Source of the DNA: Nitrospirales bacterium | GTDB lineage: Bacteria > Nitrospirota > Nitrospiria > Nitrospirales > UBA8639 | Length of the DNA stretch: 64,000 bases | Direction: 5' to 3' | Assembly: GCA_965223295.1 (NCBI GenBank) | Contig: CBDCWC010000002.1 | Span: 32,001 to 96,000 of the forward strand | Shown here: piece by piece, positions 3,156 to 61,683 of the stretch | How positions within the stretch are numbered: the stretch's first letter is position 1 | Layout of the letters: each line of letters opens with the position of its first letter | Position numbers and translations under genes: made by a program | The notes under the pieces: model-generated | Seen by the model: the letters and a program-made list of their open reading frames with translations, nothing else | Told to the model about the DNA's origin: nothing | Databases searched by the model: none

Positions 3156-3346
3156 GGGAGTGTTGAATAGTGAGGATATCAAAGGCCATGTTTCATCAGG
3201 AAGTCCTTGACAATCAATAGCCTCGGGTCTGTTCAAAAAAGTCCGTCTAGCAAGGCCGCAGCCCTTTTTGCGCGCGGAGCGTACTGGCACTACGTGAGCA
3301 CGGAAAAAGGGCGAGAACGCCGCTGGCGGCTTTTTTCAACAGACCC
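3156..3346 (+). mobile_element. MITE family A, composite: ~69 bp unit (3156-3224) + 122 bp unit (3225-3346)
   Basis: The 122 bp unit has terminal inverted repeats GGGTCTGTT...AACAGACCC and recurs at 61073-61194. The ~69 bp unit recurs at 20216-20280 and, reversed, at 15631-15699. Confidence 0.8.
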
Positions 3347-25783: not shown

Positions 25784-27007
25784 CTACGCGACAAGGGGAG
25801 AGAAATGATTTGCCCAATCAATGGCATCCAGATAAAAATCACGGATAGTCGACGGTTCAAGTCTGAGAGACTTGAGTTCCAACCACTTGCCAGATTCATA
25901 GGCTTTGACAGAAGAAAGCACTAACCCCATATCTCCTGTTCCCTCGACTAAGGCATCCGCAATATCCTCAGGTAATGGAAGTTTTTCAAGAATGTGTTCC
26001 ATGGGTGAGTTGTACAAGGTTTCTAAAACTGAAAGCAGGCCCATTGTGAAATATTTTTCTGGTGCCACGGATCCTAATTTTTCTCCCAACCGTTCGCACA
26101 TTTTAGCTCGTACGAGCGCAATGACTAATATTTCATGAGCTTGAGCCTGACCGCTGGCCATGATGATGAGTGTGGCCCATGTTCGAATACGATCGATGCC
26201 AACCATACAGGCAGCATGGTCAATCGATTCGACTCGTCTGGGAAGCCCGACGTACGCAGAATTGACATATCGCAAGACTTTATAGCTGAGAGAGAGATCG
26301 TTGCGAATATGTTGTACGAGTCCTTTAAACGGAATGTGGGGGTCCTGAATTTTCCCCAGTAACTCTAAGAGAGCCACACGGTTTGCGGGAATCTCTCGCC
26401 CCCGAATCACGTCTGGACGAAAAAAGAAATACCCTTGAAAATAGTAGAACCCTAGCTTTTTGCAAGTCTCATAGTCTTCAACCGTCTCTACTTTTTCAGC
26501 GAGGAGACGGACACGTGACTCTCCTATGTGGGACACTTCTCGTTGCAATTGACTTTCGGTTTTTCCCAAGACATCGATTTTGACAATATCGGCGAACTCT
26601 AGAAATAGGCGCGATCGATCATTAAAGACAAAATCGTCCAGCGCAATGGTATAACCTTGCTGTGAAAGTCCTTCAAGTGTTTCAAGGACCTGGGGAGTGG
26701 GTTCCACATTTTCTAGGATTTCGAGCACGACACGATTTTTAGGAAGTGCCTCACAAAAATGTTCCAAGAGAAATTGCTTGGGAATATTGAGGAATGCTAA
26801 ATGAGATCCCACGACATGTTCCAGCCCAATATCTAAATAAGTGTTGAGAAGAACCGTGGCTGTTGCCACGCTCTCATCCTTATAGATAGCCTGACCGATC
26901 TCGCAATTGCGGTAGAGCACCTCGTACCCAATGGTCTTTAACGTTGGCCCGAGAATGGGCTGACGTCCGACAAACACATCTCCATATTGGGCGAGTGCGT
27001 TTTTCAT
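25784..27007 (-). CDS. EAL-HDOD domain protein (YuxH/PdeH-like c-di-GMP phosphodiesterase)
   Basis: RQPI...YEVLYR, LEILE, ALDDF, KID, AEKVE, FQGYFF; HDOD part D..LSYKVLRYVNSA, RAKMCE, GLLS. Confidence 0.92.
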   Translation of the reverse strand: MKNALAQYGDVFVGRQPILGPTLKTIGYEVLYRNCEIGQAIYKDESVATATVLLNTYLDIGLEHVVGSHLAFLNIPKQFLLEHFCEALPKNRVVLEILENVEPTPQVLETLEGLSQQGYTIALDDFVFNDRSRLFLEFADIVKIDVLGKTESQLQREVSHIGESRVRLLAEKVETVEDYETCKKLGFYYFQGYFFFRPDVIRGREIPANRVALLELLGKIQDPHIPFKGLVQHIRNDLSLSYKVLRYVNSAYVGLPRRVESIDHAACMVGIDRIRTWATLIIMASGQAQAHEILVIALVRAKMCERLGEKLGSVAPEKYFTMGLLSVLETLYNSPMEHILEKLPLPEDIADALVEGTGDMGLVLSSVKAYESGKWLELKSLRLEPSTIRDFYLDAIDWANHFSPLVA

Positions 27008-27360: not shown

Positions 27361-29193
27361 TTAGGTTTTTTGGCTAACCGAAGATCTGACAAAGATTGCA
27401 GTCAAGTCAGTTGCGGACACAGGTGGGCTAAAGAAGTGTCCTTGGTATTGATCACATTTGAGAGTTGCCAGGATATCTCGTTGTTCCTGCTTCTCGACAC
27501 CTTCAGCGACGACATTTAAATGGAATTCATGAGCGAGATAAATAATTGCGGATACTAAGGCCTTATCTTCAGGATTGTCGGTGATGTCCATCATGAAGGA
27601 ACGGTCGATTTTTAGTTCGTGGAGTGGAAGACTCTTTAAATAGCTCAGTGATGAATATCCTGTACCAAAGTCATCCATAGAGACCTTTATCCCTAAGGCG
27701 ATCAGTTGGTTCAATGTTTCCGTAGTCTGTTCAACGTTTTCCATGATGAGACTCTCAGTGAGTTCTAACGTCAAATATTGTTGGTCGACATGATGAGACA
27801 GTAAGGCGTCTCTCACGGATTGGACAATCGAGCCTCCGTGAAATTGTTTGGCTGAGAGATTCACTGACACACGAATCCAAATTCCCTGTGCTTGCCAAGA
27901 GGATAGTTGGTTGCAGACTTCCCTTAGTGCCCATTCGCCAAGCGGTACAACGATCCCAGTTTCTTCTGCTAATGGAATAAAGTCATTTGGAGAGACTAAC
28001 GTTCCGTCGGGTTGTTGCCATCGAGCCAAGGCTTCGGTCCCAAGGATTTCTCCGGTTGCGACACTGATCTGAGGTTGATAATGCATGATGAGTTGTTTGT
28101 CTTCGATTGCGTGGCGTAAAGCAGCTTCACGTTTGAGATGCTGATGGCTCTTGGCATTCATCTCCCTCGAATAAAATTGATAGCTTCCCTGATCTTGAGA
28201 GGAAACTTGTGCGCTGGCCCCGATAGCACACTGAACCAAGGTCACGACATCTCTCGCGTCACCGGGGAAACTTGCCATGCCAATGCTGGGGAGAATGGAA
28301 ACTTCAGTGCCATCAGCATCGAAGGGAATCGACATCGCTTCAATAATTCGAGAGGCGATCTTCATCGCATGTTCTGGGTGAGCCATATGTGGGCAGACAA
28401 CTGAAAATTCATCTCCACTCACGTGAAACAAGCATGTCAATTGCTGCTCTTCCTGTATGCCTTTCCCGAGAAGGTCCGTTCCCCGGACACAGGCTTGAAT
28501 CCGGTTGGCGATCTGCTTAATAACCTTGTCACCCACTTGTGGCCCAAACGTGTTGTATATGCGTTTAAACTGAGGCAGGCTAATGTGCAACATGACGAGA
28601 TGATCGTTCCGGGACTCGGCCTGTTGGAGAAACCAGGTCAACCGGTCCAGAAATAAACTCCGGTTTGGTAAGTGTGTTAGGGCATCGTAGTAGGCGAGTT
28701 GGTTTTGATATGCTTTTGCTGCAAGCGTATTGCGTACACGGAGTACCAATTCACTTGGGTCAACTGGCTTCGCCAAAAAATCCGTGGCCCCCCGGTCTAG
28801 AGCTTCGAGTTTGGTTTCAGCATCGGAAGAGGACGTGAGCATAATGACGGGTAGATGTTTGAATAACGAATGAGACCGTATCTGGTGCAAGATTTCAAAT
28901 CCGCTGACTTCCGGCATGACCAGATCGAGCAGAAGGATATCTGGACGACAGGTTTCGATCTCTGAAATGGCTTGAGAGGAATGTTCTATCAGAACAAAGC
29001 GTTGATAGCCCGCGTCCTCTAAAAAGGTTTGCATCACCTCCATGGTGGTGACTTCATCATCAACCATCATGATCGTCGCTTGACTGAGTAAGGAGGGATC
29101 ACTTCCCAGTTCCGAAGGCAGTCCTTGCGTGATGGAGGAACGTTCATGATCCAAGGTGCCTGTTGAAGCTTGGACTGGGCTGAATGATTCCAT
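27361..29193 (-). CDS. Response regulator REC-GGDEF(degenerate)-EAL, predicted phosphodiesterase
   Basis: REC VDDE/LLDLVMP/KP. GGDEF altered to SGDEF and the DxDxFK site replaced by SLPQFK. EAL intact (EALARW, ELTES, DDFGTGYSSL, KIDRSF, EGVE). Confidence 0.92.
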   Translation of the reverse strand: MESFSPVQASTGTLDHERSSITQGLPSELGSDPSLLSQATIMMVDDEVTTMEVMQTFLEDAGYQRFVLIEHSSQAISEIETCRPDILLLDLVMPEVSGFEILHQIRSHSLFKHLPVIMLTSSSDAETKLEALDRGATDFLAKPVDPSELVLRVRNTLAAKAYQNQLAYYDALTHLPNRSLFLDRLTWFLQQAESRNDHLVMLHISLPQFKRIYNTFGPQVGDKVIKQIANRIQACVRGTDLLGKGIQEEQQLTCLFHVSGDEFSVVCPHMAHPEHAMKIASRIIEAMSIPFDADGTEVSILPSIGMASFPGDARDVVTLVQCAIGASAQVSSQDQGSYQFYSREMNAKSHQHLKREAALRHAIEDKQLIMHYQPQISVATGEILGTEALARWQQPDGTLVSPNDFIPLAEETGIVVPLGEWALREVCNQLSSWQAQGIWIRVSVNLSAKQFHGGSIVQSVRDALLSHHVDQQYLTLELTESLIMENVEQTTETLNQLIALGIKVSMDDFGTGYSSLSYLKSLPLHELKIDRSFMMDITDNPEDKALVSAIIYLAHEFHLNVVAEGVEKQEQRDILATLKCDQYQGHFFSPPVSATDLTAIFVRSSVSQKT

Positions 29194-29409: not shown

Positions 29410-31926
29410 TTAGTTCTGGGGAAATTGTTGGTTGCTGGAGACCAGCGGTTCGTCGATTCTGACACGGGAGGCCAGTGCCTGTATCTGGTCAATGTGCTGC
29501 TTCATGAGGGTGAGATTCTCAGCCTTTGCGGCAGCTTCAAGTTCACTGGCTGGCTCGAAAAAGACATCAAATCCTACCGTTCCTCCCGCTCCCTTCAACC
29601 AATGAGCGAGTTTTGCTGAGGCATCAAAGTCCTGCTCTGAATAAGCCGTTTCCATAGCTTGTAGCTGTGTTTCCAAACGACCGACAAAATTGGAAATAAT
29701 CCGTGCAAATTTGGGATTGGCGGAATCCAATCTGGACACAATAGGGGAATTTCCCGTTTCTAAGCACAGAGATTCTTTGATGGCGTCTTGCAATGGCTGG
29801 TTGGGTTCGATGGGCGTGGCTTGGAGTATCTCGGCCAACTTTGTCAGAAAGTGGTTCAGGTCTATGGGTTTGGTGAGGAAATCACTGTACCCGGCAGAGA
29901 AGAGTTCTGGTTCAAATCCTTTCATGGCGTTAGCGGTTAGCGCGATGATTGGCATTTGGAAACCTTGATCCCGCAGCATTCGAGTCGCTGTTAAACCGTC
30001 TAGTTCAGGCATTTGAATATCCATCAGCACGAGATCGTAATCGGTCCTGGAGACCATTTCTACCGCTATGCGTCCATTGGCGGCTTCCTCAACGGTTAAG
30101 TCATAATCTTCCAACACGACTTTGACGAACTCACGATTTTCCGGCCCATCATCCACGACTAGAATTTTGGCGGGAGGGAAGTCCCAATGTATCGGTGCTT
30201 TATTTGTAGAAAGATTGCTGGCTGTGAGGGCCTGCTCGGGGGATATCCAAGTCATGGCGGCGGGAATGGGCGTCTCCAGGGTTACCTTGAAAGTACTTCC
30301 CATGTTCGGCTGACTCTCCACCGTAATGTCGCCACCTAAGGCGCGGGCAAATTTCCGGCTAATGGTTAATCCGAGTCCGGTGCCCCCAAATTTTCGCGTG
30401 ATAGAAGCATCAGCTTGTGTGAAGTCCTCAAAAATACGTTCCATAGCTTCAGAGCTCATGCCCACTCCAGTATCGGAGACATCAATATGAAACCGCAGCG
30501 TGTGATCATTGATCGGTTGGGCATAGGCCTTCACGGTAATCCCGCCCTCCTCCGTGAATTTCACCGCGTTCCCCACAAGGTTCGTGATGATTTGCCGTGT
30601 GCGTCCCGGGTCGCCAATGATGGATGACGGCACATCATCCTGGAGTTGAAGATCCAAGCCGATCCCTTTGTCTTTGGCCTGAACACCAAGAACCTGCACG
30701 ACTTCGAGAATGATGGTATAGGGGGTAAACTCGACCTGCTCGATCTCCAGCCGGCCGGACTCGATTTTGGAAAGATCCAAGATATCGTTAATGAGTTCTA
30801 ATAAATGTTTTCCACTGGAATGGATAATTTCCAGATGATGCCGGGTTTCTTCCGAGTCCCGTCCGAATCCACGCTTGAGGAGTTCCGTGAAACCTAGGAT
30901 GGCATTCATGGGTGTTCGGATTTCATGGCTCATGTTGGCTAAGAACGCGCTCTTGGCTTGGTTAGCCGCTTCGGCGGCTTCTTTGGACTTCAGTAACTCA
31001 ATTTCAGCTTCTTCTAACTGGGTCACATCATCAAAACTGGCGAGGACTCCAACGTATCTTCCCCCGCTGCCGAGGATGGGGGAGCAGTTGATCATAAACG
31101 TCATGCGTTCGTCGTCGGATAACGTGAGGCGCACTCGCTGATTTATTTGCGCCTTACCTGATTCCAAGGCTATATGCCACGGGTGTTGCATGGCGTCGAG
31201 AGATTGTCCATGGGCATCTGCCCAGGGGAACTCCAGGACTTGCCGTCCCAGTAATGCCTCAGGTGTTGTGTGGAGTAAGGTCGCAAAAGCCCGGTTGGCC
31301 AACATAATCTGTTCCTTGTTGTCCAAGACCAACAGGCCTTCGGCCATAGTGTCCAGCGCGGACCGTACTCGCTCGGGAACGGCTTGAGAGGGATCAAGCT
31401 GCTTCAACATTTTGCCCAGATAAAAGTAAAACCCAAAGAAGCATGCTACTGCCACGTAGGTTAAGACCAACAGGTAAGAACCCGCAATCATGTCAACCAA
31501 ACCATTGCTGCCGATTGCATTGAATCGTAATTCCACTTGGCCCCATTGGGTTTCGCCTTCCCAAATTGGGACGGCAACTTGAGAGAGGGTGGAGGAGTCT
31601 CCAGCGGCATGATTGATATTCCAGTAGTCCTCGTGCTTGCCAATCGTCACGAGGAGGTCTCCAGATTCAGTGCGCAAGGCTGCAGAGAGCAGGTCCTCGT
31701 TGCGGTCGACCACGAGCTGTAAAGTCCCTTCGAGTCGGTCAAGATCTCTTTGCGTTAGAAAAATTGAAGTGTTGGCGGCAATGGATTCCGCCAATGCCGT
31801 TCGTCCCTCACGCACCGCTGCCGTTCGGTCTGGGATAAAACCTAAGAAGCTGGCTGTCAGCAGAACGCTGATGACCAGGCAGACTTGGCCAATGGCTAAT
31901 CGAGACTTTGTTGAAAGAATATTCAT
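29410..31926 (-). CDS. Membrane hybrid histidine kinase (TM-sensor-TM-PAS-HisKA-HATPase-REC-Hpt)
   Basis: [53 protein letters not shown]. Confidence 0.95.
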
Positions 31927-31943: not shown

Positions 31944-34900
31944 TCAGCGGGACTGTCGTGGTAAACCAGTCTTCCTTTCTGGAGGTTCGGGAGTGGCAGC
32001 TGGTTTTTCAAACATGGTTTCGAGCGAATCTTCTTTGGAGAGGTCCTGATTCTTCGTCCCTTTCTTTCTTCGTTTTCTTGCCGGAGCGTCTAAAATTAAC
32101 AAGGGATTCACAAACTGCCAGGCTGGAACCGTCGACAAGAGAGCCGTGAGAAGGACGCCGCTTCGAAGGAGCCAGATAATATACCCGACGGAAAGTCCGG
32201 TAGAGGCCGCGAGGCTCGAGACCACATACATTTGTTCCGTTTCGGATATCGTATTGAGAGTGTCACGTGCTTGGTCAAGGCTGTTGAGCAATCCGGAAGA
32301 GGGGTTCAGCAAGGCTTGAACCTCATGTTTGAAATCGATAGTTTCAAATGGCAGTTGTAAGAGACTCAAGAGTTCATTGGCGGTGGCCCCCCGGCCTATC
32401 CTGCCGTCGAGAGCTTGGAGCGTTTCGGCATCATTCCCTTGAGATGTGTTGAACGAATCTGGGCCCTTCTGGTTGTCTTCGGAGAGGTTTGAGCCATGAC
32501 TGGAACCAAATCCCTGGGACTCAGTCACAAAAAACTCTCCACTTCCTGGTAATTCTTCCTGTGTATCTCCTTCGTCAGGCGGCGGTGGAGATTCAGGTGA
32601 TGGATCCGGAGGAGGCGGCAGAACAACAAGTGGCAGATCGGTGACTGTGACGGCAATGGTCTGTGTATCGGTTAAGGTCCCATCAGAGGTTTGCACGATC
32701 ACGTCATAGACGTTGTTGGCCCCTACGTCCGTTGGAGCTTGTAGGTCTGGAGCCGTGATGAAGGTCAGCGCGCCAGTGGTGGAGTCTATGCTGAATTGGG
32801 CGGCATCAGCCCCGCCGATAATGCTATAGGTTAGTGGCGTGCCTTCGGGATCTGTGGCTGAGACATTGGTGACAGCGGTGTTGCCAGCTAAGACAGTGGC
32901 GGTGGCGGTGGCACCGCCTCCATTTGACGTAATGCGGGGTGCATCGTTTTGAGGGGTAATGGTGAGATTCACCATTGCGCCGTTCGATACGGTCCCGGCA
33001 AAGTCCTGGATGGTATAGGTAAAACTGTCCGTCAGGGTCTCCGAACCGTTATGGGTATAGACCACGGTTCCATCAGTGTTGATCTGGGTGATTGTGCCGT
33101 TTGTTGGCCCGGAAACGATGGTGATGCTGGTCAAATCGAGGCCGTCGTCGGCATCCGAATCATTGCCCGCCACATTCAATGTGGCAGAGGCCCCTTCGTT
33201 AACGGTGAACGTGTCGGAAACCGCGGTGGGTGAGGTGTTCGTGGCCGTGACAAGAAGTGTGGTGCGGGCCGCGGCACTGTCAGCCGAGCCATCGTTGACG
33301 GTGACATCAATCAGCCGGTTTCCACCGGTGGGTGTGTTGGTGTCTGTGTGTTGATACTGAATGGCTTGGATCAAGGTTTCAGCTTGGGCTTCGGTGAAGA
33401 CGCCGGCGCTTTGTCTGGTAATCGTGAGGGTCGCGGTTCCGGCACCAGTGGCCACGGCGACGTGATAATTGCCTCCTGAGGTATTTTGACTGGCAACTGC
33501 TGTGCCCAAAGCAAATGTATCGCCGTCGAGAATCAATATTTCGGCATTACCATCCTGGATTCCGCTGATAGTAAGCATGACATTAGCGAAGGAGCCGCTA
33601 TCCACATCAGTGACGGTGGCATCGCTGTCAACGATGGCTACAGGCGCTCCACCTTCGGTAAACGTAGTTTGATAGCCGGTTCCGGTCGCACCAGAACTGT
33701 CATCGGCATCCAGGTCGAGCGTGGGCAGATTGTTTACGGAATTAATGGTGACAGTAATGGATCCTGTCGTGTCTAATGCGCCACCGCTGCCTTGGGCGCC
33801 GGTATTTCCGTCGTTAAAGGTGAAATCGATTTGGACGCTGACGGGCGGGTTGCTGCTGGCGTTGGCGTAGGTCAGGCGGTTTAAGAGTTGATCTACCAAG
33901 GTTGAGGTGGCATTTCCGTTAAACGTGATGACCAGCGTCCCGCCACTATTGGTGGTGGCGGTCCCGATGGTGGTGCCGCCTAACACAATGGAGCTGCCTT
34001 CCATGAGCGATCCTGTAACGCCAGCTGCGCTGAAGCGGTCATCCGCATTGGCGCCGCCATTGCGCGCAAGCGTCAATGTGGCGCCGTTATAGTTGTTAGC
34101 CACATCCAATTCAGGATCAGCGATGGTGGCGTTGGAGTCCAGGACTACGGCTATGCTGCCTTCGGTAAAGACAGGGGTGGCATCAAGGCCGCTAAAAGAT
34201 GGGGGTTCATTGACGGGGTTTACGTTGATCGTGGATCGGGCGGTTGTGCTGCTTAATGCTCCATCGCTGACCTGTACGTCTATGAAGCGATTGCCATCGG
34301 TGGGCGTGCTCGTATTGGTATGTTGGTACTGAATGGTTTGGATCAGCGTTTCGGTTTGAGCCAGGGTCCAGGTGCCTCCTCCGGCTTTCGTGATGGTGAC
34401 GTTGGCGGTTCCGGTTCCGGTGGTGATGACGACATGGTAAAGCCCCCCAGAGGTATTCTGCCCCGCCTCAGCCGTGGCTAGAGCAAAGGTACTTCCATCC
34501 AGCTCTAGGATTTCTGCGTTGCCGTCCAGAAGCCCGATGATTGCCAATGTTACGGATGTAAAGGCCGTGCTGTCAGGATCGGATAGCACGGCATCTGTAT
34601 CGGCAATGGATACCAAGCTTCCGCCTTCTGTGAACGTAAGTTGATAATCGATGCCGCTAGCGCCCGAACTGTCATCGGCATCCAGGTCTAATGTCGGGCC
34701 ATTGGATGCCACGTATTCGTAAGAGCCGATATCCACGTTCGCATCGCGGGTGGTGCTGCGTTGGTCAACAGCAGGCGCGCCGATGGAGTTGCCTGCGTTA
34801 ATAGCAGGGCTTCCGGCCAACAACGCATGGGTGAGCGTGGCTCCGCCGTTATTGGCCAACACACTCAACAATGGGTCCACGTTGTTCTGGTCCGAGGGAT

Positions 34901-36620
34901 CGCCTAACAAGGCTGTGCCATCACTGTCGATGTTGTTGCCCAGAGAGGTCAGGGCTACATTGGAATTACCTCCAACGTGATTCACCAAAATGGTGTTTTT
35001 CAGGCTGATTGATCCACTGCCGGCTAGGTTAATGCCATCATTGCCGGCATTCGAGGCAATCGTGGAGTTGGTGAGTGTCGTCGTGCCTCGGTTAAAAATG
35101 GCTCCGCCGTTTCCCACCGCACTGTTGCCGCTGACTGTGGTATTCAGCACTGTGGTGGTTGCTCCGCCCTGTATGGCCAATCCACCGCCCGTGTTGGCGC
35201 TGTTGTTCACAATGGCCACGCGATCCATAATTGCTGTGCCCAAAACGATTACCCCGCCGCCGCTGCCTGTGGTGGTATTGTCCCGCACAATGGCGTCTTG
35301 TAGCGTGAGCGTGTTGCTTGGGCCGACCCAGAGTCCTCCACCTCCCAACAGACCCGTTTCTCCGTTCTGAGCGGTGAGCCTGGAGATGGTAGCAGTGTTA
35401 CTGTGGACGGCGAATATCCGGTCCGGTGTGCTGCCAAGCCCGGAAGCATCAATGATGGTGGTTGTGGCGGAATCGCCAACAATAGTGACATCTTGTAGTA
35501 TGTCTAAGTCGCCGAAAGTGGCATCTGGCGCAAGTTCGTTGCTGGCGCCGATTGAGAGGGTATAGGTTCCAGCACTCAGGACGATTGTGTCTCCGCCTGA
35601 ACCGGCATTGGCTTGCAGAACGGCTTCGCGTAGCGACGTGACGCCATCACCAGCATCGATGACATCGGCAAAGGTCGTCACGTTGATGGTGGCTAGTTTG
35701 CCAATCCACTCTTCTTGCGTGGAGCTATCGATCACGACGTGCGAGTCAATCGTTCCGGTTTGATATTCCAGATCCCAGTTAGCGCCGTACTGCAGGCTGC
35801 CGGTGTTGTCGGTACTGGCGGCCAGGTCGGCGCCGGTAAGTTTGGCCAATAACCTGGCGGCAGCGCTCCCCGCATCGCCTTGTCCAAAGTCACAGCCGTA
35901 GATAAGAAGGTCTGCGTCTTCCGTTAAGGCTTGATGAATCGTGGCTAGTTCATCGGCGTAGGCATCTTGCATGGACATCATGTTGAGCACTCCTGTTCCC
36001 AGTTGCAATTCGCCTTGATTGCCATGAGAAATGACATGAATTGCGTCGATGCCAGACCGGTCTTTCAAGATTTCAGCCATTTGTTCGATGCCGTCTCTGG
36101 TCGGATCTAAAAGAATCACATCGGCATTAGGATCAATGCCTTCCATGAGTGTCTGATAGTCATTGATATTGGTATCGATGAATACAACTTCCTGTCGACT
36201 AGTGGGCGCTGCAACTGTGGATAGCGCTGACTGAAGATTAATGCTGTCCGTGAATGGATTTGAACGAGATTCAGATTCGGGTGGTGTACTGATTTCTTGA
36301 AGGTTGCGATCTTGAGTGATCTGATCCTGAATCACTTCCACCCCGGTGAGAAGGGCCGCCCCGTCAAACATAATTCTTGGCTCCAGAGGCAGCAGTAAAC
36401 CAATGCTTTGAAACGGTTGGTGCTCATTGGAAGGTCGGTAGGGATGTTTCTTTCTGTGTGAGGCACCTTGATTGAATCCTTGCCCCAGAATCGTGTGCGT
36501 GATTTTTGGGAGAAATCGCTGGACCCAATTCTTGCGTAGTGTAGGGGGGACAAGGTGGGATAGACCTGTATCCCTCTTGCTGTGTGTGCGTCTCATCACA
36601 TCCATTAGTTCCAAGAACAT
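31944..36620 (-). CDS. Large surface protein A: LEPR motif, DUF4347, SLREA beta-helix/choice-of-anchor-Q-like region, Ig/cadherin repeats, Pro linker, C-terminal hydrophobic motif
   Basis: [17 protein letters not shown]...SHG...LLIYGCD...LAASTDNTG...[45 protein letters not shown] repeats; GGAGG RBS before ATG 36620 (ORF open to 36695). Confidence 0.9.
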
Positions 36621-36904
36621 AGTATTCCTCCATCTCTCTTTTCGGGAACTTGGATGACGATCTGGAAAATCTTTTGAGAGAACTTTTCCGAACACTGCCA
36701 GTTCTGAGAAATTCTTTCTAATTAATGGATATTACAGAAAGAACTGAAGGGACAGAAGAACGAATAAGTGAAAGTATTCAATATCAAGGAAATATGAACC
36801 GAAAGATTGAACTGGAATCTTATACTTAGGAACTGAGGGTTTTGTGGGGAGAGCTGCTTCTCGGCCTTTCTGAATAAAGACGCATAGGATCTGTTGCAAG
36901 ATAA

Positions 36905-38479
36905 ATGATGAAAGACAATTGTAAGGCTTTGGCAATGGCATCAACATCTATTCATCGATGGATGTGTCTAATGGTGAGTAGTTTCATGTGTGTTGTGGGA
37001 GGCTGTGCGATCGTTCCTGAACCTCTCACTTCCGAAGAGTTAGAACAGCGTGTTCAAAATGATCTCCAGAATCTCAGTGGGTATCAGGAGCCTGTTGCTC
37101 GCCCCATAACCTTGTATGATGCTATGGCTCGGGCATTGAAGTTTAATTTGGAAGCCCGTGTCCAAGGGTTGAAGGAAATGGTAGCGCATCGGCAATTGGA
37201 TCTCGCACATTATGATATGTTACCAAAATTGGTTGCGGATGGGGCCTATAACGGACGTTCAAATTTTGCTGGTGCGCGAAGCCGCTCTTTGCTCTCAGGG
37301 CAAACATCTTTAGAGCCGTCTACCTCGTCAGATAAGGATTTGTTTACGGCGAATCTCACCTTAAGCTGGGATGTTTTAGATTTTGGCTTGTCATATGTCC
37401 GAGCGCAACAAGCATCGAATGATGTGTTGATAGCGGAAGAAGATAAACGACGCATTGCCAATCGTGTCATTCAAGAAGTCCGTTCGGCTTTTTGGAAAGC
37501 TGTCGGGGCGGAACGAGCCCTTGGGCGTCTATCCTTTTTAGACGATTGGGTGACGAAAGCCATTCAAGAGACCCGGGTGATTCGAGCCAGGGCCTTGGAG
37601 GCACCGCTGACCTCTCTCCAATATGAACGAGAACTCCTACAGGCTCAACAAGAAATACAGCAGCTGTATCAAGAACTTTCGGTGGCCAGAATTCAACTTG
37701 GGGAACTCATGAATTTGCAGCCTGGAGAGCCGTATGAACTGGTGAAACCTAAGCGGACGCCACCAGTCTCAAAGGTTAGGGACAATCTGGAGAAGTTGGA
37801 ACAACAAGCTTTACTTAATCGTCCTGAGTTGCGCACGGTGGACTATCAGAAACGTATTAATGCCAAAGAAACTAAGGTGGCCATTTTAGAACTGTTGCCA
37901 AGTCTCAATGTCTACCTTGGAGAAAATTATGATAGTAATTCGTTTCTATTTCATGATAATTGGCTGAGTTATGGAGCAAAAATCAGCTGGAATCTTATGA
38001 ATGTTTTCAGACATCCAACTCGGTTGCAAGTCATTGATGCTCAGGACGAAGTGCTGAATGCACAAAGTTTGGCGCTGACGATGACGATCATGACACAAGT
38101 GCATGTGGCCGTTGCCCAGTACGAGGCTGCCTTAAGGGAAGTCAAAATCGCTCAGCGGTATTTCGCGACGCAACTGAAAATAGCCACTCATGTTCAGCGG
38201 GCTTGGTCCTTGAATCGGCTGAGTGAACATCGTGTGATTCGAGAAAAGGTTCAAGGGTTGTTAGCCGAATTGCGGCATGAAATGGCGTTAGCCAAGTTAG
38301 AGATGGCTTATGCCAATCTATTAGCAGCCATAGGCGAAGATCCTTTCCCTGCGAAATTATCTGATGACGATTTGGACGAATTGGCCGATGCGTTGGAGCA
38401 ACGCTGGGAATTGTTAGAGCAGCATGCCATGGTTTCACCTGTGAATATGGAACAACCAGAAGGAGTGTTACAGCCATGA
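36905..38479 (+). CDS. TolC-family outer membrane channel (lipoprotein)
   Basis: VGGC lipobox; AMARALKFNL, LSWDVLDFG, ALLNRPELR, LLPSL outer-membrane efflux repeats. Exact start uncertain. Confidence 0.9.
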   Translation: MMKDNCKALAMASTSIHRWMCLMVSSFMCVVGGCAIVPEPLTSEELEQRVQNDLQNLSGYQEPVARPITLYDAMARALKFNLEARVQGLKEMVAHRQLDLAHYDMLPKLVADGAYNGRSNFAGARSRSLLSGQTSLEPSTSSDKDLFTANLTLSWDVLDFGLSYVRAQQASNDVLIAEEDKRRIANRVIQEVRSAFWKAVGAERALGRLSFLDDWVTKAIQETRVIRARALEAPLTSLQYERELLQAQQEIQQLYQELSVARIQLGELMNLQPGEPYELVKPKRTPPVSKVRDNLEKLEQQALLNRPELRTVDYQKRINAKETKVAILELLPSLNVYLGENYDSNSFLFHDNWLSYGAKISWNLMNVFRHPTRLQVIDAQDEVLNAQSLALTMTIMTQVHVAVAQYEAALREVKIAQRYFATQLKIATHVQRAWSLNRLSEHRVIREKVQGLLAELRHEMALAKLEMAYANLLAAIGEDPFPAKLSDDDLDELADALEQRWELLEQHAMVSPVNMEQPEGVLQP

Positions 38480-39315
38480 AATCAAAAATTTCAATCACCG
38501 TAATATGTGTGGCGGGCCTCATGGTGGGAAGTGGAGACAACAGTCTTGCGAAAAAAGGAAGCCTTCAATCTGCCAATCTGAATGCTGTTCGTGGAATAGT
38601 CAAGCCCACTCAAGAAGCCGTCATTTCTAGTGAATTACAAGCCCGAGTCAAACAAATCCCTTTTCGGGACGGGCAACGGTTTAAAAAAGGAGACCTACTT
38701 ATTGAATTTGACTGTTCGAAATACTTGGCAGAACTAGCGGCGGCCAAAGCTGAATTCGAGGCACGGGAAAAAACGGCTATCAATAATAAGGAGTTAGCCA
38801 AACTCCATGGCATAGCTCAGCTAGAAGTTGATATCTCTCGGGCAGAGGTCAAACAGGCCAAAGCGGCTGTGAGAAGTGCCAATTTGGCCGTCAGACATTG
38901 CCGAATTACGGCCCCATTTTCGGGACGGATAGTGAAAACGCTCGTTCATCCTTATGAAAGTGTGAATCCTTATGATGAAGTGATGAGTGTGTTAAATGAT
39001 CAGAATTTCGAAATTGAATTGATTCTACCGTCCACGTCTCTGCGGTGGGTGGCGAAAACCAGCCCATTTAAATTTTTTATTGATGAAACCCAAGAAGTCT
39101 ATGCTGCTGAAGTCGTCGATATTGGGGCTCGTGTGGATCCCGTGAGTCAAACCATTCGTATCTTTGGTCAGTTTAGGAAGCAACCGAAGCAGGTGTTGGC
39201 GGGCATGAGCGGGAGTGCCAGATTTACCGATCGAAAGCTTATATCTCAAAACAAGAAATCAACCTTCAATCCCAGTACATCGCCGAGTCCTTCAGCCAAA
39301 ACAGCAAAAAAGTAA
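38476..39315 (+). CDS. Periplasmic adaptor (HlyD/MFP-like), short
   Basis: Signal peptide; FKKGDLLIEFDC, CRITAPFSG, RVDPVSQT, LAGMSG; overlaps the upstream stop. Confidence 0.88.
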   Translation: MKSKISITVICVAGLMVGSGDNSLAKKGSLQSANLNAVRGIVKPTQEAVISSELQARVKQIPFRDGQRFKKGDLLIEFDCSKYLAELAAAKAEFEAREKTAINNKELAKLHGIAQLEVDISRAEVKQAKAAVRSANLAVRHCRITAPFSGRIVKTLVHPYESVNPYDEVMSVLNDQNFEIELILPSTSLRWVAKTSPFKFFIDETQEVYAAEVVDIGARVDPVSQTIRIFGQFRKQPKQVLAGMSGSARFTDRKLISQNKKSTFNPSTSPSPSAKTAKK

Positions 39316-39379
39316 GTCGCTTTGACATTATGTACAGGCTTGACCATTTCCAGCGTATAGAGTTGTCGGTCTTCAACGC

Positions 39380-40843
39380 ATGAGCCAGAATTTTCGAGAC
39401 ACATGCCAGTCTTCTGTTGGTGCGGGGGTGATGGAGCCTCCAGCACCCACTCAAGCTTCATCAGCGTCAACAAGTGGGCAATCTTCGGCACCGCCGGACA
39501 AGGGTTCTGACATTGATCCTCAATTGCTGTTGGCCCTTCTGCAATTAGAAAGTCAGGTCCGTGCTGCGCAAACTGTCAAAGAGTTATGTTTTCTCTTAGC
39601 CAATGAAACTCGCCGTCTTATTGGGTTTCGGCAGGCCTGTGTATTTTCCTTTGGCACGAATTTACGCCAGGCTTGCCAAGTTGAGGTGGTGTCGAGTGTG
39701 GCGATTGTGGATCGAAAATCTCCTATGGTGCAGTGGATGGAAGAAGTTGTGTCCGACCTCTGGGGTCGGCAGGCGTTGCAAGCCCCATGTCATTTGAATG
39801 TCGAGCAATGTGCCAAGCATCTTCAAGCCGATTGGAGACGGTTTGCCTTTCCACATGTGTTGTGGTGTCCCATTGTTTGGAATAGCCAACAAGTGATGGG
39901 AGGGGTCTGGCTGGCACGGGAACGTCCCTGGCAAGAAGGTGAAATTCAATTGATTCGGCGATTTGCCGAAACGGCAGCCCATGCCTGGAATGCTTTAGGG
40001 AAAACCAAGACTTCTGTTAAAAATTGGACATTGTCTCAACGTTGGTTATGGGTTGTGTTGGTCCTGATGGTTGGAGTGATGTGTGTGCCGATTCGGCTAT
40101 CAACCTTGGCTCCGGTTGAAGTGGTAGCTCATGAACCAGCCGTGGTGACAGCTCCGCTCGATGGAGTCATTGCTGAAATTTTCGTTGAACCCAATACCGT
40201 GGTGACAGAAGGACAGGCACTGTACCGCTTTGAAGACACGAAATTTCGTAACGACTATGAAGTCGCTGAGAAAAACTTAGCAGTAGGGTTTATGGAATAT
40301 CGAAAAATGACTCAGGGTGCATTTGTCGATGATGAAACAGGTGCAGGGATGCCTGTGCAAGCTTCTGAAGTGCGGTTGAAAGAAACCGAACGGGACTATG
40401 CCTGGGAAATCTTACAGCAAGTGGAGGTGAAAGCCCCAAGGGGAGGCATTGTCCTGTTCAATGATAAATCCGACTGGATCGGGAAGCCTGTGGTAATTGG
40501 AGAACGGATCATGGAAGTGGCAAATCCGAAAGAATATGAATTAAAAATTGATCTACCTGTGGAAGATGCGATTGTCTTGCGGGAGGGGGCCGAGGTTGAG
40601 GTTTTTTTAAATGCAGATCCCTTGGGAGCGATTCCTGCCAGTTTGTCCCATGCCAGTTACCATGCCGAAGTGTTGCCCGATAATGTGTTGGCCTATCGAG
40701 TGAAAGCCAAGGTTACTGAGCCACCAGAATCCATTCGGATCGGGTGGCAAGGTACGGCTAAGATTTATGGTGAACGTGTATCGCTCTTTTTCTATTTGTT
40801 CCGACGACCGCTGTCCGTCTTTCGCCAAACCGTAGGCTGGTAA
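39380..40843 (+). CDS. Membrane fusion protein with N-terminal GAF-like cytoplasmic domain
   Basis: N-terminal alpha/beta domain (LANETRRLIGFRQA...GGVWLARERPW..GEIQLI), one TM, then VTAPLDGVI, VKAPRGG and IRIGWQGTAKI adaptor motifs. Alternative start 39431. Confidence 0.85.
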   Translation: MSQNFRDTCQSSVGAGVMEPPAPTQASSASTSGQSSAPPDKGSDIDPQLLLALLQLESQVRAAQTVKELCFLLANETRRLIGFRQACVFSFGTNLRQACQVEVVSSVAIVDRKSPMVQWMEEVVSDLWGRQALQAPCHLNVEQCAKHLQADWRRFAFPHVLWCPIVWNSQQVMGGVWLARERPWQEGEIQLIRRFAETAAHAWNALGKTKTSVKNWTLSQRWLWVVLVLMVGVMCVPIRLSTLAPVEVVAHEPAVVTAPLDGVIAEIFVEPNTVVTEGQALYRFEDTKFRNDYEVAEKNLAVGFMEYRKMTQGAFVDDETGAGMPVQASEVRLKETERDYAWEILQQVEVKAPRGGIVLFNDKSDWIGKPVVIGERIMEVANPKEYELKIDLPVEDAIVLREGAEVEVFLNADPLGAIPASLSHASYHAEVLPDNVLAYRVKAKVTEPPESIRIGWQGTAKIYGERVSLFFYLFRRPLSVFRQTVGW

Positions 40844-42972
40844 TGTCTCCGGCGTCTCCACAAGAAGATATTGCCCTTCCCCCATTACGAGATGATCTAC
40901 AAATCCTGTCTGGCACTCCTACGGCAGAAGGAGTGCCCACTTGGAATATTTTGGATCCCGTCCGGCATCAATACTTTCAAATAGGCTGGGCGGCATTTCA
41001 ACTTCTTTCCCAATGGCATCTGGGGTCAGCAAACAAGCTTATCGAGGTGGTCTCGAGCTCTACGACAGCCAAGGTGTCACAACGGGATGTCATGGAACTG
41101 CTACAGTTTCTCTATCGGCACAATCTCACCAGAGAGGCACCCATGGGAGGCAGCAAAGGCCTCTATGCCCAAGCCGAGCAAAGCAAGCAACATTGGCTCC
41201 TGAAACTTCTCCATAGCTATCTCTTTTTTAGAATTCCGTTGTTCAATCCCGATCGGTTCCTGCAACGAACGTCGCCCATTGTCGCTCCCCTCTATACGAA
41301 AGCAGCCTTGATCCTGATTGTGCTTTTGGGGGTGGTGGGATGCGTGGGGATTGTGCGGCAATGGGAATCATTTGCGAATACGTTTTTGTATTTCTTTTCC
41401 CTGCAAGGGATGACGGCGTATGTGTTGGGATTGCTGGGGATCAAAATCTTGCATGAGTTAGGACATGCCTATACGGCTGCCCGGTATGGCTGCCGGGTCC
41501 AGACTATGGGTGTGGGCTTTCTCATAATGGTGCCGGTCCTCTATACGGATACCACGGATTCTTGGAAATTGACATCCCGTTGGCAGCGTGCTGTGATCGC
41601 TGCAGCAGGGACAGTTGTTGAGTTGGGTATCGCTATGCTTGCTACGTTTGCATGGCATCTGTGCCCGGAAGGAGTCACAAAAAGTGTGCTCTTTGTGTTG
41701 GCCACCACGAGCTGGATCATGGGTTTGTTCATCAATCTGAATCCGCTGCTTCGCTTTGATGGGTATTACGTGTTGTCGGATTGGTTAGGGGTTCCCAATC
41801 TTCAATCACGAGCCTTTGCGTTTGGACAATGGAAGTTACGAGAATGGTTATTTGGCTGGGGGGATGCGCCTCCTGAGGAACTACCCGCTACGCGCCAGCG
41901 AATCTTGATAGGCTATGCTTGGGCGACGTGGGTCTATCGGGCGTTCATGTTTTTGGGTATTGCGGTGTTGGTCTATTATTTCTTTTTCAAAGTCTTGGGC
42001 ATTATTTTGTTTTTAGTGGAAATCGGATGGTTCCTGGCATGGCCGGTCTATCAAGAAATGCACGTGTGGTGGAAGCGACGTGATGAAGTGGCGCGTTCAT
42101 GGCGTGGGAGAGTGGTTGGTGCCCTTGTTATGCTGACGATGGTTGTAGGATTCCTCCCTCTAGATCGGATGGTGTCGATTCCAGCGGTCCTGGAGGCACG
42201 GGAGCGAGCCACAGTGTTTTCACCTGTTCCCGCCAAAATTGTCGACGTGCAAGTGAATGAAGGCGATCGAGTTCAAGAAGGCGATGCATTGATGGTGTTG
42301 GAGTCGCCCGTAACTGAGCAAAACATTCTGATGCTCGAACAACGGATCACGGCGTTACACGTGCGTTTGCAACGGGAAGCAGCGTTCCAAGAAGACCGAG
42401 ATGATCATCAAGTCTTGTGGGAACATCTTCAAGGAGAACTGAAAGAACTGGAAGGCTTGCTGAAAATTCGTGCCCAGTTAGTCCTACGGGCACCGTTTGC
42501 TGGATTGGTCACTGATACGACCTCTTCGCTGCATGAAGGCCGATGGGTTAAAGCTGAGCTTCCTCTCATGCATCTCATCAAACCAGAAGGAATGGTTGTT
42601 CAGGCGTATGCGACAGAAGAACAACATGCTCGAATTGGCTCACAGAGCGAGGGGTGGTTTTATGCGGACGACCCAGCTTTGCCTGCTCGACGGAGTCGCA
42701 TACAGGATCTTCAGGAAGTGGATGAATCACATTTTTCTCTGTCCTATTTGGCTTCGCTGTATTCAGGCCCTGTGCCCGTCCGCCAAGATGAGCAGGGCAA
42801 TCTCAAGCCCGAGACTTCTATCTATCGCGTTCTCTTGGATGTCGACGATGGAGGTGGTCACTGGCCTCAAGCCGTGCGAGGAATCGTCCAGGTTCAAGCA
42901 GAATCCCAGAGTGCTTGGGGACAACTCTGGGAACATGTCGCAGCGGTCTTTATCCGAGAAAGTGGGATGTGA
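40843..42972 (+). CDS. Fusion of PqqD/RRE-like domain, site-2 (M50) zinc protease and periplasmic adaptor
   Basis: LHELGH (HExxH) and NLNPLLRFDGY M50 motifs within a multi-TM region; C-terminal VNEGDRV and LRAPFAG adaptor motifs; N-terminal ILDPVRHQYFQIG...helical bundle. Confidence 0.88.
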   Translation: MSPASPQEDIALPPLRDDLQILSGTPTAEGVPTWNILDPVRHQYFQIGWAAFQLLSQWHLGSANKLIEVVSSSTTAKVSQRDVMELLQFLYRHNLTREAPMGGSKGLYAQAEQSKQHWLLKLLHSYLFFRIPLFNPDRFLQRTSPIVAPLYTKAALILIVLLGVVGCVGIVRQWESFANTFLYFFSLQGMTAYVLGLLGIKILHELGHAYTAARYGCRVQTMGVGFLIMVPVLYTDTTDSWKLTSRWQRAVIAAAGTVVELGIAMLATFAWHLCPEGVTKSVLFVLATTSWIMGLFINLNPLLRFDGYYVLSDWLGVPNLQSRAFAFGQWKLREWLFGWGDAPPEELPATRQRILIGYAWATWVYRAFMFLGIAVLVYYFFFKVLGIILFLVEIGWFLAWPVYQEMHVWWKRRDEVARSWRGRVVGALVMLTMVVGFLPLDRMVSIPAVLEARERATVFSPVPAKIVDVQVNEGDRVQEGDALMVLESPVTEQNILMLEQRITALHVRLQREAAFQEDRDDHQVLWEHLQGELKELEGLLKIRAQLVLRAPFAGLVTDTTSSLHEGRWVKAELPLMHLIKPEGMVVQAYATEEQHARIGSQSEGWFYADDPALPARRSRIQDLQEVDESHFSLSYLASLYSGPVPVRQDEQGNLKPETSIYRVLLDVDDGGGHWPQAVRGIVQVQAESQSAWGQLWEHVAAVFIRESGM

Positions 42973-43068: not shown

Positions 43069-43467
43069 TCATTTCAATAAGGTGAATTCAGAAGATTTGC
43101 TGGCCTGACGATCAAATGTCATTGTTGTGGTGCAATGCTTGCTGTGATTGATTCGACTCAAGAGATAATCTGCAAAATCTGCTGGATTGTTCCGATAATC
43201 CTCTAAGGCTTGCCAAACCACCTGTGGCTCGTCAACACGAAGTTGAGCCACGCGCAAAATTTGTTCAAGAGTTTTGATCAGGGTGTTCTTAGGCTGGTCA
43301 TAGCATCCTTCTAATACCCAAAGGGTTTCGCATAACACCAAATGATTGAGAAATCCTGGGTCGTCTTTTGTACAGGTTCCCTCGATTAGAACTGTCGCAG
43401 ATTTGGCTTGAGGAAGATCGTCCTGGACAAGGTATCGAACTAAAACGTTGGTATCAATCCCTATCAC
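43069..43467 (-). CDS. vapC: VapC PIN-domain toxin
   Basis: IDTNVLVRYL, E..WVL, DFAD, TFD. Confidence 0.92.
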   Translation of the reverse strand: MIGIDTNVLVRYLVQDDLPQAKSATVLIEGTCTKDDPGFLNHLVLCETLWVLEGCYDQPKNTLIKTLEQILRVAQLRVDEPQVVWQALEDYRNNPADFADYLLSRINHSKHCTTTMTFDRQASKSSEFTLLK

Positions 43468-43702
43468 CGCTTTTCCCTCGTTGTTTAATTACTGACCGCA
43501 TAGCTTCCAATGAAACTGATTGTTTGGGCCTTGGAATTAGGCCTTTCAAGGTCGTGACGTCTGAGGTCACCGGCCAGACAGTGACCTGTCCATTAGGCCC
43601 AAGCAAAAATTCGACTCGGTCCCCTGGTTGCAGCTGTAGCTGGTCTCGAATGACTTTTGGAAGGGTAATTTGCCCTTTACTCGTCAAGGTAGCAACAGAC
43701 AT
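43454..43702 (-). CDS. vapB: AbrB/MazE/SpoVT-family antitoxin
   Basis: TLTSKGQITLPKVIRDQLQLQPGDRVEF; overlaps the toxin start. Confidence 0.92.
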   Translation of the reverse strand: MSVATLTSKGQITLPKVIRDQLQLQPGDRVEFLLGPNGQVTVWPVTSDVTTLKGLIPRPKQSVSLEAMRSVIKQRGKSGDRD

Positions 43703-43727
43703 AAAAATCCTTTCTAATATTAATAAT

Positions 43728-43745
43728 CCTTACCATGCAGTAAGG
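43728..43745. promoter_or_regulatory. Possible antitoxin operator
   Basis: CCTTAC-N6-GTAAGG inverted repeat upstream of the antitoxin, next to TTGACC on the - strand (43751-43756). Confidence 0.45.
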
Positions 43746-44020
43746 GGAATGGTCAAGAAACTCGTGGACCTTTTATTTCATGAAAGTCTTAAAGTTTTTT
43801 ATAAATGCCAAAGCCGAGCAATACCTTTTCAGTCAAGAGAATCTCCAACAATGGTGAGTAATCTCAAAATAACTGGGCAACATATTCCTCTGATTCCGTC
43901 AAGAGATTCACTAAATGCCCGACAAGGAAATGAGGTCCCCTCGTTTGAGGGAGGAGAGGCTTCTACCCAATACACTGGGGAATAGTTCTCACCCTGATGA
44001 TATAGACAGGAAGCTGAACA

Positions 44021-61027: not shown

Positions 61028-61072
61028 TTCACGACTCATCGTATTTTCTCAGCGAAGTTGTTCCTTGAGAGG

Positions 61073-61194
61073 GGGTCGGTTCAAAAAAGTCCGTCCAACA
61101 AGGCCACAGCCATTTTTGCGCGCGGAGCGTGCTGGTCCTACGTGAGCAAGGAAAAAGGGCGAGAACGCCGCTGACAGCTTTTTTCAACAGACCC
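61073..61194 (+). mobile_element. MITE family A, 122 bp unit
   Basis: Same length as and highly similar to 3225-3346; ends GGGTCGGTTCAAAAAAG...CTTTTTTCAACAGACCC. Confidence 0.85.
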
Positions 61195-61683
61195 CTGTTG
61201 GTATCAGGCTCTTGGGCCACAACCTCTGACCAAATTCAAGCTAACTACCCGGATCCGGTGGATATGACAAAAACAGCATAGCCGACCGAATTCCTTCAGC
61301 GATTGAATTCGTTTTCCGATGAATGAAGGAAGAACCTGCAAGAAGAGACAGGTGCCTGCTCCATGTTGGTCAATATGGTAAAGAATCAGGGGGTGGTGCC
61401 CTCAACCGAGATTGTAGCCTGGATGGTTCGAGTTGGCATGTTGCTGACGAGGTTTATGGAGGCGGCAGTTCCAGCCTGTCGCCAATTTGATCCAGTGCCG
61501 ATATTGGGCATGGGTAAAAAGGGCCGAGAAACCTGGATCCGACGAGTAAAGGAAACCGCAACAATGGAACGTTGCAAATACCAAGGATTAGACCAAATTC
61601 TTCAAAAAGCTGAGAAAGAGGCACCGGCTTTGATTTTGGGAAAGACTGCATCAGATACGCCGCGAACGATGACTTTCTCATGA
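61192..61683 (+). pseudogene. Decayed paralogous 3' end of a giant surface protein
   Basis: Colinear with about 60536-61027 (WATTSDQI...YPDPVDMTKTA...VAWMVR...RQFDPVPIL...GLDQILQ); in-frame stops TAG 61279 and TGA 61324; final TGA overlaps the cyclase ATG. Confidence 0.88.

Follow-up and report, generated by a model that had tools for sequence, protein, structure and literature searches.

A sensor module shared by a hybrid kinase and a diguanylate cyclase keeps company with the C-terminal tail of surface adhesins

We analyzed a 64,000-nucleotide (nt) stretch of the genome of a Nitrospirales bacterium (UBA8639; assembly GCA_965223295.1, contig CBDCWC010000002.1, positions 32,001 to 96,000 of the forward strand), hereafter the window, in which a hybrid sensor kinase and a diguanylate cyclase carry the same N-terminal input module and lie beside genes for surface adhesins that end in a related membrane tail. 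Across genomes, the module gene mostly sits directly downstream of a gene with such a tail, co-occurrence of the two is near-perfect, and the outputs attached to the module vary. The module family is very probably functionally dedicated to tail-bearing surface proteins; that the sensor directly senses the adhesin tail in the inner membrane is, in our judgment, an even call.

The two sensor genes of the window and their shared parts, with transmembrane helices abbreviated as TM and amino acids as aa, are:

29410 to 31926, minus strand: hybrid sensor kinase P0001, 838 aa, with N-terminal module (N-module), PAS, HisKA, HATPase_c, REC and Hpt (Pfam)
31372 to 31926, minus strand: kinase N-module, residues 1-185, with TM1 at 6-27, a periplasmic domain at about 31-148, TM2 at 150-176 and the start of the LDPS linker (AlphaFold2 model, structural matches)
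31012 to 31374, minus strand: cytoplasmic PAS domain of the kinase, residues 185-305, within the shared unit (BLASTP, Pfam)
61680 to 63191, plus strand: diguanylate cyclase P0002, 503 aa, with N-module, PAS and GGDEF (GGEEF, RxxD five residues upstream) (sequence, Pfam)
61680 to 62234, plus strand: cyclase N-module, residues 1-185 (BLASTP, module search)

An earlier note on this DNA had claimed from a set of motifs that kinase and cyclase share one input module, each time followed by PAS. All of these motifs are found in the translations of 29410-31926 (minus) and 61680-63191 (plus), and the alignment bears the claim out: by BLASTP, the two proteins share 108 of 311 positions (35% identity, E = 6e-59) between kinase residues 10-319 and cyclase residues 10-317, and the likeness therefore spans both the N-module, 33% identical by itself, and the PAS domain, which Pfam recognizes in both proteins (residues 186-302 in the cyclase). 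In order, the shared unit comprises TM1, a periplasmic PDC/sCache-like domain of ~120 aa, TM2, a conserved linker and PAS. Beyond PAS the proteins diverge, with HisKA-HATPase_c-REC-Hpt in the kinase and GGDEF in the cyclase by Pfam. The kinase domains all exceed their Pfam cut-offs (HisKA, E = 3.9e-24; HATPase_c, E = 7.2e-27; REC, E = 3.3e-28; Hpt, E = 1.4e-11), which identifies a hybrid histidine kinase. The cyclase GGDEF domain (PF00990, E = 6.7e-43) has an intact active-site motif, RYGGEEF, with RPTD five residues upstream, and judged from these motifs P0002 is apparently an active diguanylate cyclase. The genome carries one further copy, the third, outside the window.

The first ~180 residues of the module are covered by no Pfam or NCBIfam model, and no Pfam family scored over its cut-off on the N-module. 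The best Pfam match, CHASE8 (PF17152), was obtained with the cyclase only (E = 0.11; 13.2 bits against a gathering cut-off of 27 bits) and the kinase gave none; six of 33 module relatives matched CHASE8 weakly (best E = 0.015), and in genomes with both, the CHASE8 model matches genes other than the module genes. With scores below the gathering cut-off and a model that picks other genes, we rejected membership in CHASE8. The N-module likewise matched no curated sCache, Cache or CHASE profile, a profile search of PDB sequences with the module returned no matches, and Foldseek of its structural model against the PDB returned nothing at E ≤ 0.001. That model, computed with AlphaFold2 from a 33-sequence alignment (predicted local distance difference test, pLDDT, 90.7), has a TM-PDC-TM topology: TM1 at 6-27, helices at 34-58 and 62-75, strands at 79-86, 91-95, 116-123 and 126-135, and TM2 at 150-176. 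It shows the N-terminal helices, antiparallel sheet and two flanking TM helices that mark extracytoplasmic PAS-like sensor domains, and a wide VIA search, independent of Foldseek, placed the periplasmic part among such domains (PDC/sCache), with 34 chains at Z of at least 8. The matches include WalK (Z = 11.6, root-mean-square deviation 3.0, 114 aligned residues), 3cwf (11.5), CitA (10.8), the LapD orthologue CdgS9 (10.3), DctB (10.0) and LuxQ (9.9). This class holds small-ligand binders as well as domains that work via protein partners, and several of the best matches (WalK, CdgS9, LuxQ) are of the latter kind. Invariant or near-invariant in the module are P32, R42, E47, A50, R75, S81, R85, G89, H98, W102, V119, P120, W128, G129 and E132, and the linker from TM2 to PAS (LDPS..VP.RVR.ALDTLAEGL) is strongly conserved. 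Protein Atlas look-alikes at 0.89-0.93 were nameless clusters, sCache, CHASE5/8 and LapD_MoxY_N, which we take as leads only.

Close homologues come in three architectures: PAS-GGDEF proteins of ~503 aa, PAS-HATPase_c proteins of ~637 aa, and hybrid kinases of 838-990 aa with REC and Hpt. An exhaustive phmmer search of 1.84 billion representatives returned 1446 family clusters at E ≤ 0.001, of which 995 also reach E ≤ 1e-10, with clusters defined at 50% identity. Among 45 representatives, chosen for varied length from the best 150 matches of this search, we counted PAS in 38, HisKA in 22, GGDEF and HATPase_c in 17 each, REC and Hpt in 11 each, HD/HD_5 in four and EAL in three; no chemoreceptor or other output class appeared among these 45. 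The module with its PAS domain thus carries hybrid-kinase, GGDEF, GGDEF-EAL, HD-type and HATPase-only outputs: the output domains are interchangeable, as had been proposed, yet confined to two-component and cyclic di-GMP (c-di-GMP) enzymes.

On the adhesin side, the window contains:

31944 to 36695, minus strand: adhesin P0003, 1583 aa as listed, with LEPR-type N-terminus, DUF4347, choice-of-anchor Q, cadherin-like repeats and C-terminal tail (open reading frame (ORF), profile scans)
31947 to 32300, minus strand: P0003 tail, last 118 aa, a long helix into one TM segment (invariant W, R, PAW, DP) and a basic/acidic cytoplasmic end (tail alignment, AlphaFold2)
44021 to 61027, plus strand: giant adhesin in three overlapping frames, with LEPR/DUF4347 N-terminus, tandem ~95-aa repeats and C-terminal tail (ORFs, profile scans)
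60680 to 61024, plus strand: C-terminal tail of the giant adhesin (tail search)
61270 to 61683, plus strand: decayed duplicate of the adhesin tail with stops upstream; its ORF, 61363-61683, shares 4 nt with the start of the cyclase gene (sequence comparison)

Three proteins end in a related segment of ~110 aa: P0003, the giant adhesin, and P0275, a beta-helix/cadherin-like protein of 967 aa that is encoded elsewhere in the genome and carries the same tail. In an alignment of 50 tails, G39, W43, W61 and P66 are invariant, and S37, R46, L50, P59, A60, D65, L67, P68 and L70 nearly so; these residues lie within a hydrophobic segment that has R-G-G at its center, ends in P-A-W and passes through a D-P-L-P-V-L turn to a charged terminus. 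The AlphaFold2 model (pLDDT 74) has a long helix at 2-56, a break at PAW and a second helix at 66-86, which fits a single-pass C-terminal anchor whose last ~50 residues would be cytoplasmic. Searches of five tails against NCBIfam and Pfam at E up to 10 gave nothing relevant among known C-terminal sorting or anchor signals (PEP-CTERM, GlyGly-CTERM, LPXTG, type I secretion system (T1SS)/RTX). The LEPR-type adhesins (31944-36695 and 44021-44920) share an 11-residue N-terminal motif, followed by DUF4347, and have no obvious Sec signal, whereas the P0275 N-terminus, judged by eye, resembles a Sec signal peptide; one kind of tail thus goes with more than one sort of N-terminal export feature.

The earlier statement that each sensor gene directly follows an adhesin 3' end stands in full for the kinase, whose ATG (31926) lies 17 nt past the stop of the adhesin ORF 31944-36695, and only in part for the cyclase. 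The cyclase ATG (61680) does overlap ORF 61363-61683 by 4 nt, but that ORF is a decayed copy of the giant-adhesin C-terminus (61% identity, E = 2e-38), with one TGA and one TAG further upstream, and ~650 nt lie between the end of the intact giant adhesin and the cyclase. Four other genomes of this genus have the tail of a giant ORF, intact, directly before the cyclase, and we therefore attribute the arrangement here to a local duplication or rearrangement in the window's lineage. The frames of the giant adhesin (44021-56587, 56569-57672 and 57530-61027) overlap inside near-identical ~95-aa tandem repeats; relatives at the same place are single open frames of up to 5125 aa, and the frame breaks may reflect genuine frameshifts, phase variation or errors of assembly across the repeats. 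Between the giant-adhesin stop and the tail remnant lies a ~122-nt element (61073-61195), present also at about 3225-3346. It is dispersed in the genome (40 copies scored at 89-93% identity, of 289 first-look candidates), and its ends pair in an RNA fold with a z of only -1.27; Rfam gave no match to it, and no inverted repeat was seen in a repeat search of 61000-61260. It looks like a miniature inverted-repeat transposable element or repetitive extragenic palindromic (MITE/REP-type) element and may have accompanied the tail duplication.

The genome containing the window is 100% complete and holds exactly three modules and four tail matches (three intact plus the remnant), each module gene following a tail. 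The third module belongs to the cyclase P0276, whose start overlaps the end of P0275 by 4 nt; the neighbors of this pair are unrelated (GH114, NFACT, NUDIX, endonuclease III), and the pair therefore stands without adjoining export genes. As a check, the earlier note had proposed asking what fraction of module hits lie directly downstream of a tail gene. We scanned hidden Markov models (HMMs) of module and tail over six-frame ORFs of fetched loci, and in the Nitrospirota and other-phyla sets scored as adjacent a same-strand tail whose end lay no deeper than 7 nt into the module match and no farther than 270 nt before it. The fraction, three of three in the window's own genome, was elsewhere:

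Other Nitrospirota genomes (L005-L033): tail directly upstream of the module gene in 23 of 29
Loci reached via a Granulosicoccus homologue (L034-L101): tail directly upstream in 49 of 67
Even sample of 400 Gammaproteobacteria: a tail for 20 of 23 evaluable module genes (19 of 22 with the unpublished G546 left out), at gaps of 2-627 nt

The second set spans Gamma-, Beta- and Deltaproteobacteria, Myxococcota, Planctomycetota, Nitrospirales and one bin labelled Rhodothermales, with L056 and L102 left out as their modules are cut by contig ends; in the third, 25 matches correspond to 24 genes, one of which has only 84 nt of upstream sequence. The tail-less loci comprise six Nitrospirales short kinases, one locus with a 443-aa ORF between tail and kinase (L058), three from the Gammaproteobacteria sample (L129, L135 and L137) and a Granulosicoccaceae kinase group considered below, and an iterated tail HMM recovered no tails at 24 tail-less loci. 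Short upstream ORFs that we had considered as "tail-only" genes proved to be pieces of giant repeat genes, frame-broken in metagenome assemblies. In a sample of 401 Nitrospirota we counted 54 modules, 42 of them with a tail in front, and 65 tails, 43 of them with a module behind.

At the genome level, the module was found in 20 of the 400 Gammaproteobacteria and the tail in the same 20 (19 and 19 without G546), with G653 unscored in the module search. Of the 401 Nitrospirota genomes, 38 carry the module and 43 the tail: 36 have both, seven the tail only and two the module only, the latter being G265 (a fragment with a stop, a pseudogene) and G325 (a 90-contig assembly). High adjacency together with near-perfect co-occurrence means that the module is not one that is common without such neighbors. 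Co-occurrence also outlasts adjacency: ten of the 12 unlinked Nitrospirota modules are in genomes holding a tail elsewhere, and all five tested Granulosicoccaceae genomes with an unlinked kinase hold one to three tails elsewhere. Two of the nine tails in these genomes have a further module gene downstream, and the best-scoring ones have no adjacent sensor. As related genomes are not independent, we give all adjacency and co-occurrence figures as counts and not as statistics.

A simple motif classification of 120 unique modules showed that the class of module tracks the class of tail. Hybrid-kinase modules lie behind acidic ..SLESMV-type tails in 41 cases, this motif being located in the cytoplasmic end of the tail, behind ..GLDxIL-type tails in none, behind other tails in 14 and behind no tail in 17; GGDEF and ~640-aa kinase modules lie behind ..GLDxIL-type tails in 16 cases, and 17 GGDEF-form modules have tails of neither type. 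Two apparent exceptions (L061 and L073) are truncated ORFs from which the output type cannot be read. Module and tail diversify together while outputs swap, a pattern that shared descent alone could also give.

Around the sensors and adhesins the window encodes further regulators and an export module:

27361 to 29193, minus strand: response regulator P0396, with REC, degenerate GGDEF (SGDEF) and EAL with intact EALAR (Pfam, motif reading)
25784 to 27007, minus strand: EAL-HDOD protein (profile scan)
36905 to 38479, plus strand: OEP/TolC-like protein
38476 to 39315, plus strand: HlyD
39380 to 40843, plus strand: GAF-HlyD
40843 to 42972, plus strand: M50 protease-HlyD fusion

Among the 37 loci that span 15 kb or more, 28 have a REC-GGDEF-EAL gene as the next one downstream of the kinase, and P0396 is likely the phosphorelay target of P0001. 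Its motifs are those of an enzyme that probably breaks c-di-GMP down; with SGDEF and intact EALAR in P0396, and GGEEF and RxxD in the cyclase, the sensors of the two window adhesins probably push c-di-GMP in opposite directions. The export genes (36905-42972) sit between the two adhesins with no pump gene among them, and within 10 kb of the module gene M50-HlyD occurs in 23 and GAF-HlyD in 17 of the 37 long loci. A 205-aa ORF (43368-43985, plus strand) between the M50-HlyD gene and the giant adhesin matched nothing in Pfam or NCBIfam, and these loci contain no homologue of it at E ≤ 1e-10. A pump-less domain set of this kind ("Secondary SecA_DEAD" / GAF-HlyD / M50-HlyD / HlyD / OEP) has been reported by comparative genomics (Kamneva, Poudel & Ward 2015, PMC4452313), with Nitrospirae listed among the carriers; the window has the same set, except that we saw no SecA_DEAD gene in it. 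The terms "histidine kinase", "adhesin" and "cadherin" do not occur in the main text of that paper, and as far as this main text goes the sensor module and the tail therefore lie outside its description.

Direct coupling in the inner membrane, by analogy with the control of WalK by YycH/YycI or of PilS by PilA, is the most economical reading of these data. The sensor would sit beside the adhesin tail, in contact with it via TM helices and juxtamembrane segments on both sides, and would report on the state of its cognate adhesin: its presence, loading, ongoing export or cleavage. In the cyclase form the response would be synthesis of c-di-GMP; the hybrid-kinase form would pass phosphate via Hpt to the adjoining REC-(SGDEF)-EAL regulator, a probable c-di-GMP-degrading enzyme. 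The earlier note had spoken of a dedicated receptor module for the adhesin C-terminus: the dedicated association is borne out by adjacency and co-occurrence, whereas reception of the tail, and with it physical contact, signaling direction and enzymatic activity, is what we infer.

Several observations weigh against this reading. Seven Nitrospirota genomes have tail matches and no module (six of the seven matches are weak and core-only, E = 1e-9 to 1e-11), and in that sample a neighboring partner is missing for 12 of the 54 modules and 22 of the 65 tails. Seventeen Granulosicoccaceae kinases (among L080-L097) follow an M50-HlyD gene and a ~310-aa gene, not an adhesin. The module TM helices contain no invariant acidic residue that could pair with the invariant Arg of the tail, and the need of the export machine to recognize the tail could by itself account for the tail invariants. 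Small-molecule binding is common among PDC/sCache folds, and the conserved polar residues R42, E47, R75, R85, H98 and E132 could form the wall of a ligand pocket. A mobile cassette that merely held both genes would likewise produce adjacency and co-occurrence. One-to-one co-folding of module and tail scored 0.00 against a mark of 0.32, with the tail partner's own fold uncertain, and we count it neither way. The Granulosicoccaceae kinase group is paralogous, and its rearranged cassette could help to tell a module that senses the tail from one that senses the machine.

An independent environmental sensor, whose periplasmic domain would bind a small molecule or ion with no input from the tail, seems to us unlikely. 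Its adjacency to adhesins would come only from regulating adhesin production, export or biofilm behavior via c-di-GMP, and regulators are commonly co-transcribed with their targets; the fold class is rich in small-ligand binders (CitA, DctB, the Cache domains of chemoreceptors), the periplasmic domain has conserved charged and aromatic residues, and the 12 unlinked Nitrospirota modules point the same way. Such a sensor should, however, also appear in tail-less genomes, yet the module and tail sets of the Gammaproteobacteria are identical and only two of 38 Nitrospirota module genomes lack a tail. It would be expected on other outputs as well, yet chemoreceptors are absent from the 45 representatives, and the tracking of tail class by module class also speaks against it.

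We give a similarly low probability to a docking or inside-out role, in which the module would bind the tail or the M50-HlyD/TolC machine with a logic like that of LapD rather than sense the adhesin, and would serve either to place the cyclase or kinase at the export site for local c-di-GMP signaling or to decide whether the tail is retained or is cut by M50. The likeness to the periplasmic output domain of the LapD orthologue, the 17 kinases behind M50-HlyD genes and the frequency of M50-HlyD near module genes are in keeping with this, as are the R-G-G and P residues in the TM segment of the tail, since helix-breaking residues in a TM segment favor intramembrane cleavage by site-2 proteases. 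The cytoplasmic parts, however, are typical signal outputs (a GGEEF cyclase, a full hybrid kinase with Hpt) and not c-di-GMP receptor domains, no LapG-type protease (PF06035) was found in the complete genome of the window, and the P0275/P0276 pair is far from export genes. That module and tail are mere neighbors in one horizontally mobile cassette, with nothing specific between them beyond shared regulation, is improbable: the cassette is patchily spread (5% of the sampled Gammaproteobacteria, two families of Nitrospirota), as is typical of mobile gene sets, but the pair persists without the other cassette genes (P0275/P0276) and co-occurrence survives the loss of adjacency.

A widespread sensor family that hardly ever occurs in genomes apart from one kind of adhesin tail, and whose outputs are limited to c-di-GMP enzymes and to kinases feeding a c-di-GMP regulator, is a testable candidate for adhesin-coupled signaling, and it suggests that bacteria monitor their own adhesins. 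How bacteria sense touch at surfaces is a long-standing question, for which c-di-GMP is the usual read-out. More speculatively, and we think this a long shot, the tail-bearing giant adhesins might be the ligand-binding arm of a two-protein receptor, in which pull, engagement or release would move the TM helix against the bound sensor and convert attachment into c-di-GMP synthesis (cyclase) or breakdown (kinase, then EAL). If true, this would be a bacterial counterpart, in many phyla, of outside-in mechanosignaling by integrins or adhesion G-protein-coupled receptors. The orphan pump-less TolC/HlyD/M50 export module, for its part, gains a sensor and a candidate cargo mark. Cultured carriers of the family, Marinobacterium profundum, Pseudomaricurvus alcaniphilus and Granulosicoccus, make bench tests feasible.

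A literature search, with supplements outside its scope, found no description of the link between module and tail, and we compared the system with its closest known analogues. The LapD-LapG-LapA system of Pseudomonas fluorescens (CdgS9 in Legionella) resembles it in having a c-di-GMP signaling protein of the inner membrane that is encoded near a giant adhesin and couples c-di-GMP to it, with a periplasmic PAS-like, TM-flanked domain like that of the module (Z = 10.3 to CdgS9, 4u64, a score that many PDC domains equal). LapD works as a c-di-GMP receptor, its GGDEF-EAL domains being degenerate, and sends its signal inside-out through capture of the LapG protease. The module proteins, in contrast, have an apparently active cyclase or hybrid kinase, by their motifs, in place of receptor domains, and PAS in place of HAMP; the window adhesins have a C-terminal TM tail, whereas the LapA type has an N-terminal retention module and a T1SS signal. 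LapD_MoxY_N (PF16448) did not match the module, in a search whose control matched in no genome either. With receptor domains absent from the outputs and no Peptidase_C93 in the genome, a LapD/LapG-type mechanism is unlikely.

CHASE8 sensors (YfiN/DgcN/TpbB), whose input is a protein partner, the periplasmic repressor YfiR, similarly place a TM helix, a ~100-aa periplasmic domain and a second TM helix on a diguanylate cyclase, and show weak sequence echoes of the module; they differ in that the module is followed by PAS, not HAMP, has no YfiR/YfiB context and matches the CHASE8 model far below its cut-off. The PilS kinase, which measures the inner-membrane pool of the pilin PilA through a TM segment, is alike in concept, as a sensor kinase gauging the subunit of a surface structure in the inner membrane, but has six TM helices and no periplasmic domain, and its partner is the pilin N-terminus. 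WalK (4ywz, 9a5d), the best structural match, combines a kinase with a minimal PAS-like domain outside the cytoplasm, and the single-pass membrane proteins YycH/YycI set its activity through TM contacts. WalK shows no sequence relationship to the module (8% identity), serves a Gram-positive cell-wall system and has small partners rather than giant adhesins; as in WalK, the module family is apparently a PDC-type sensor governed by a membrane partner.

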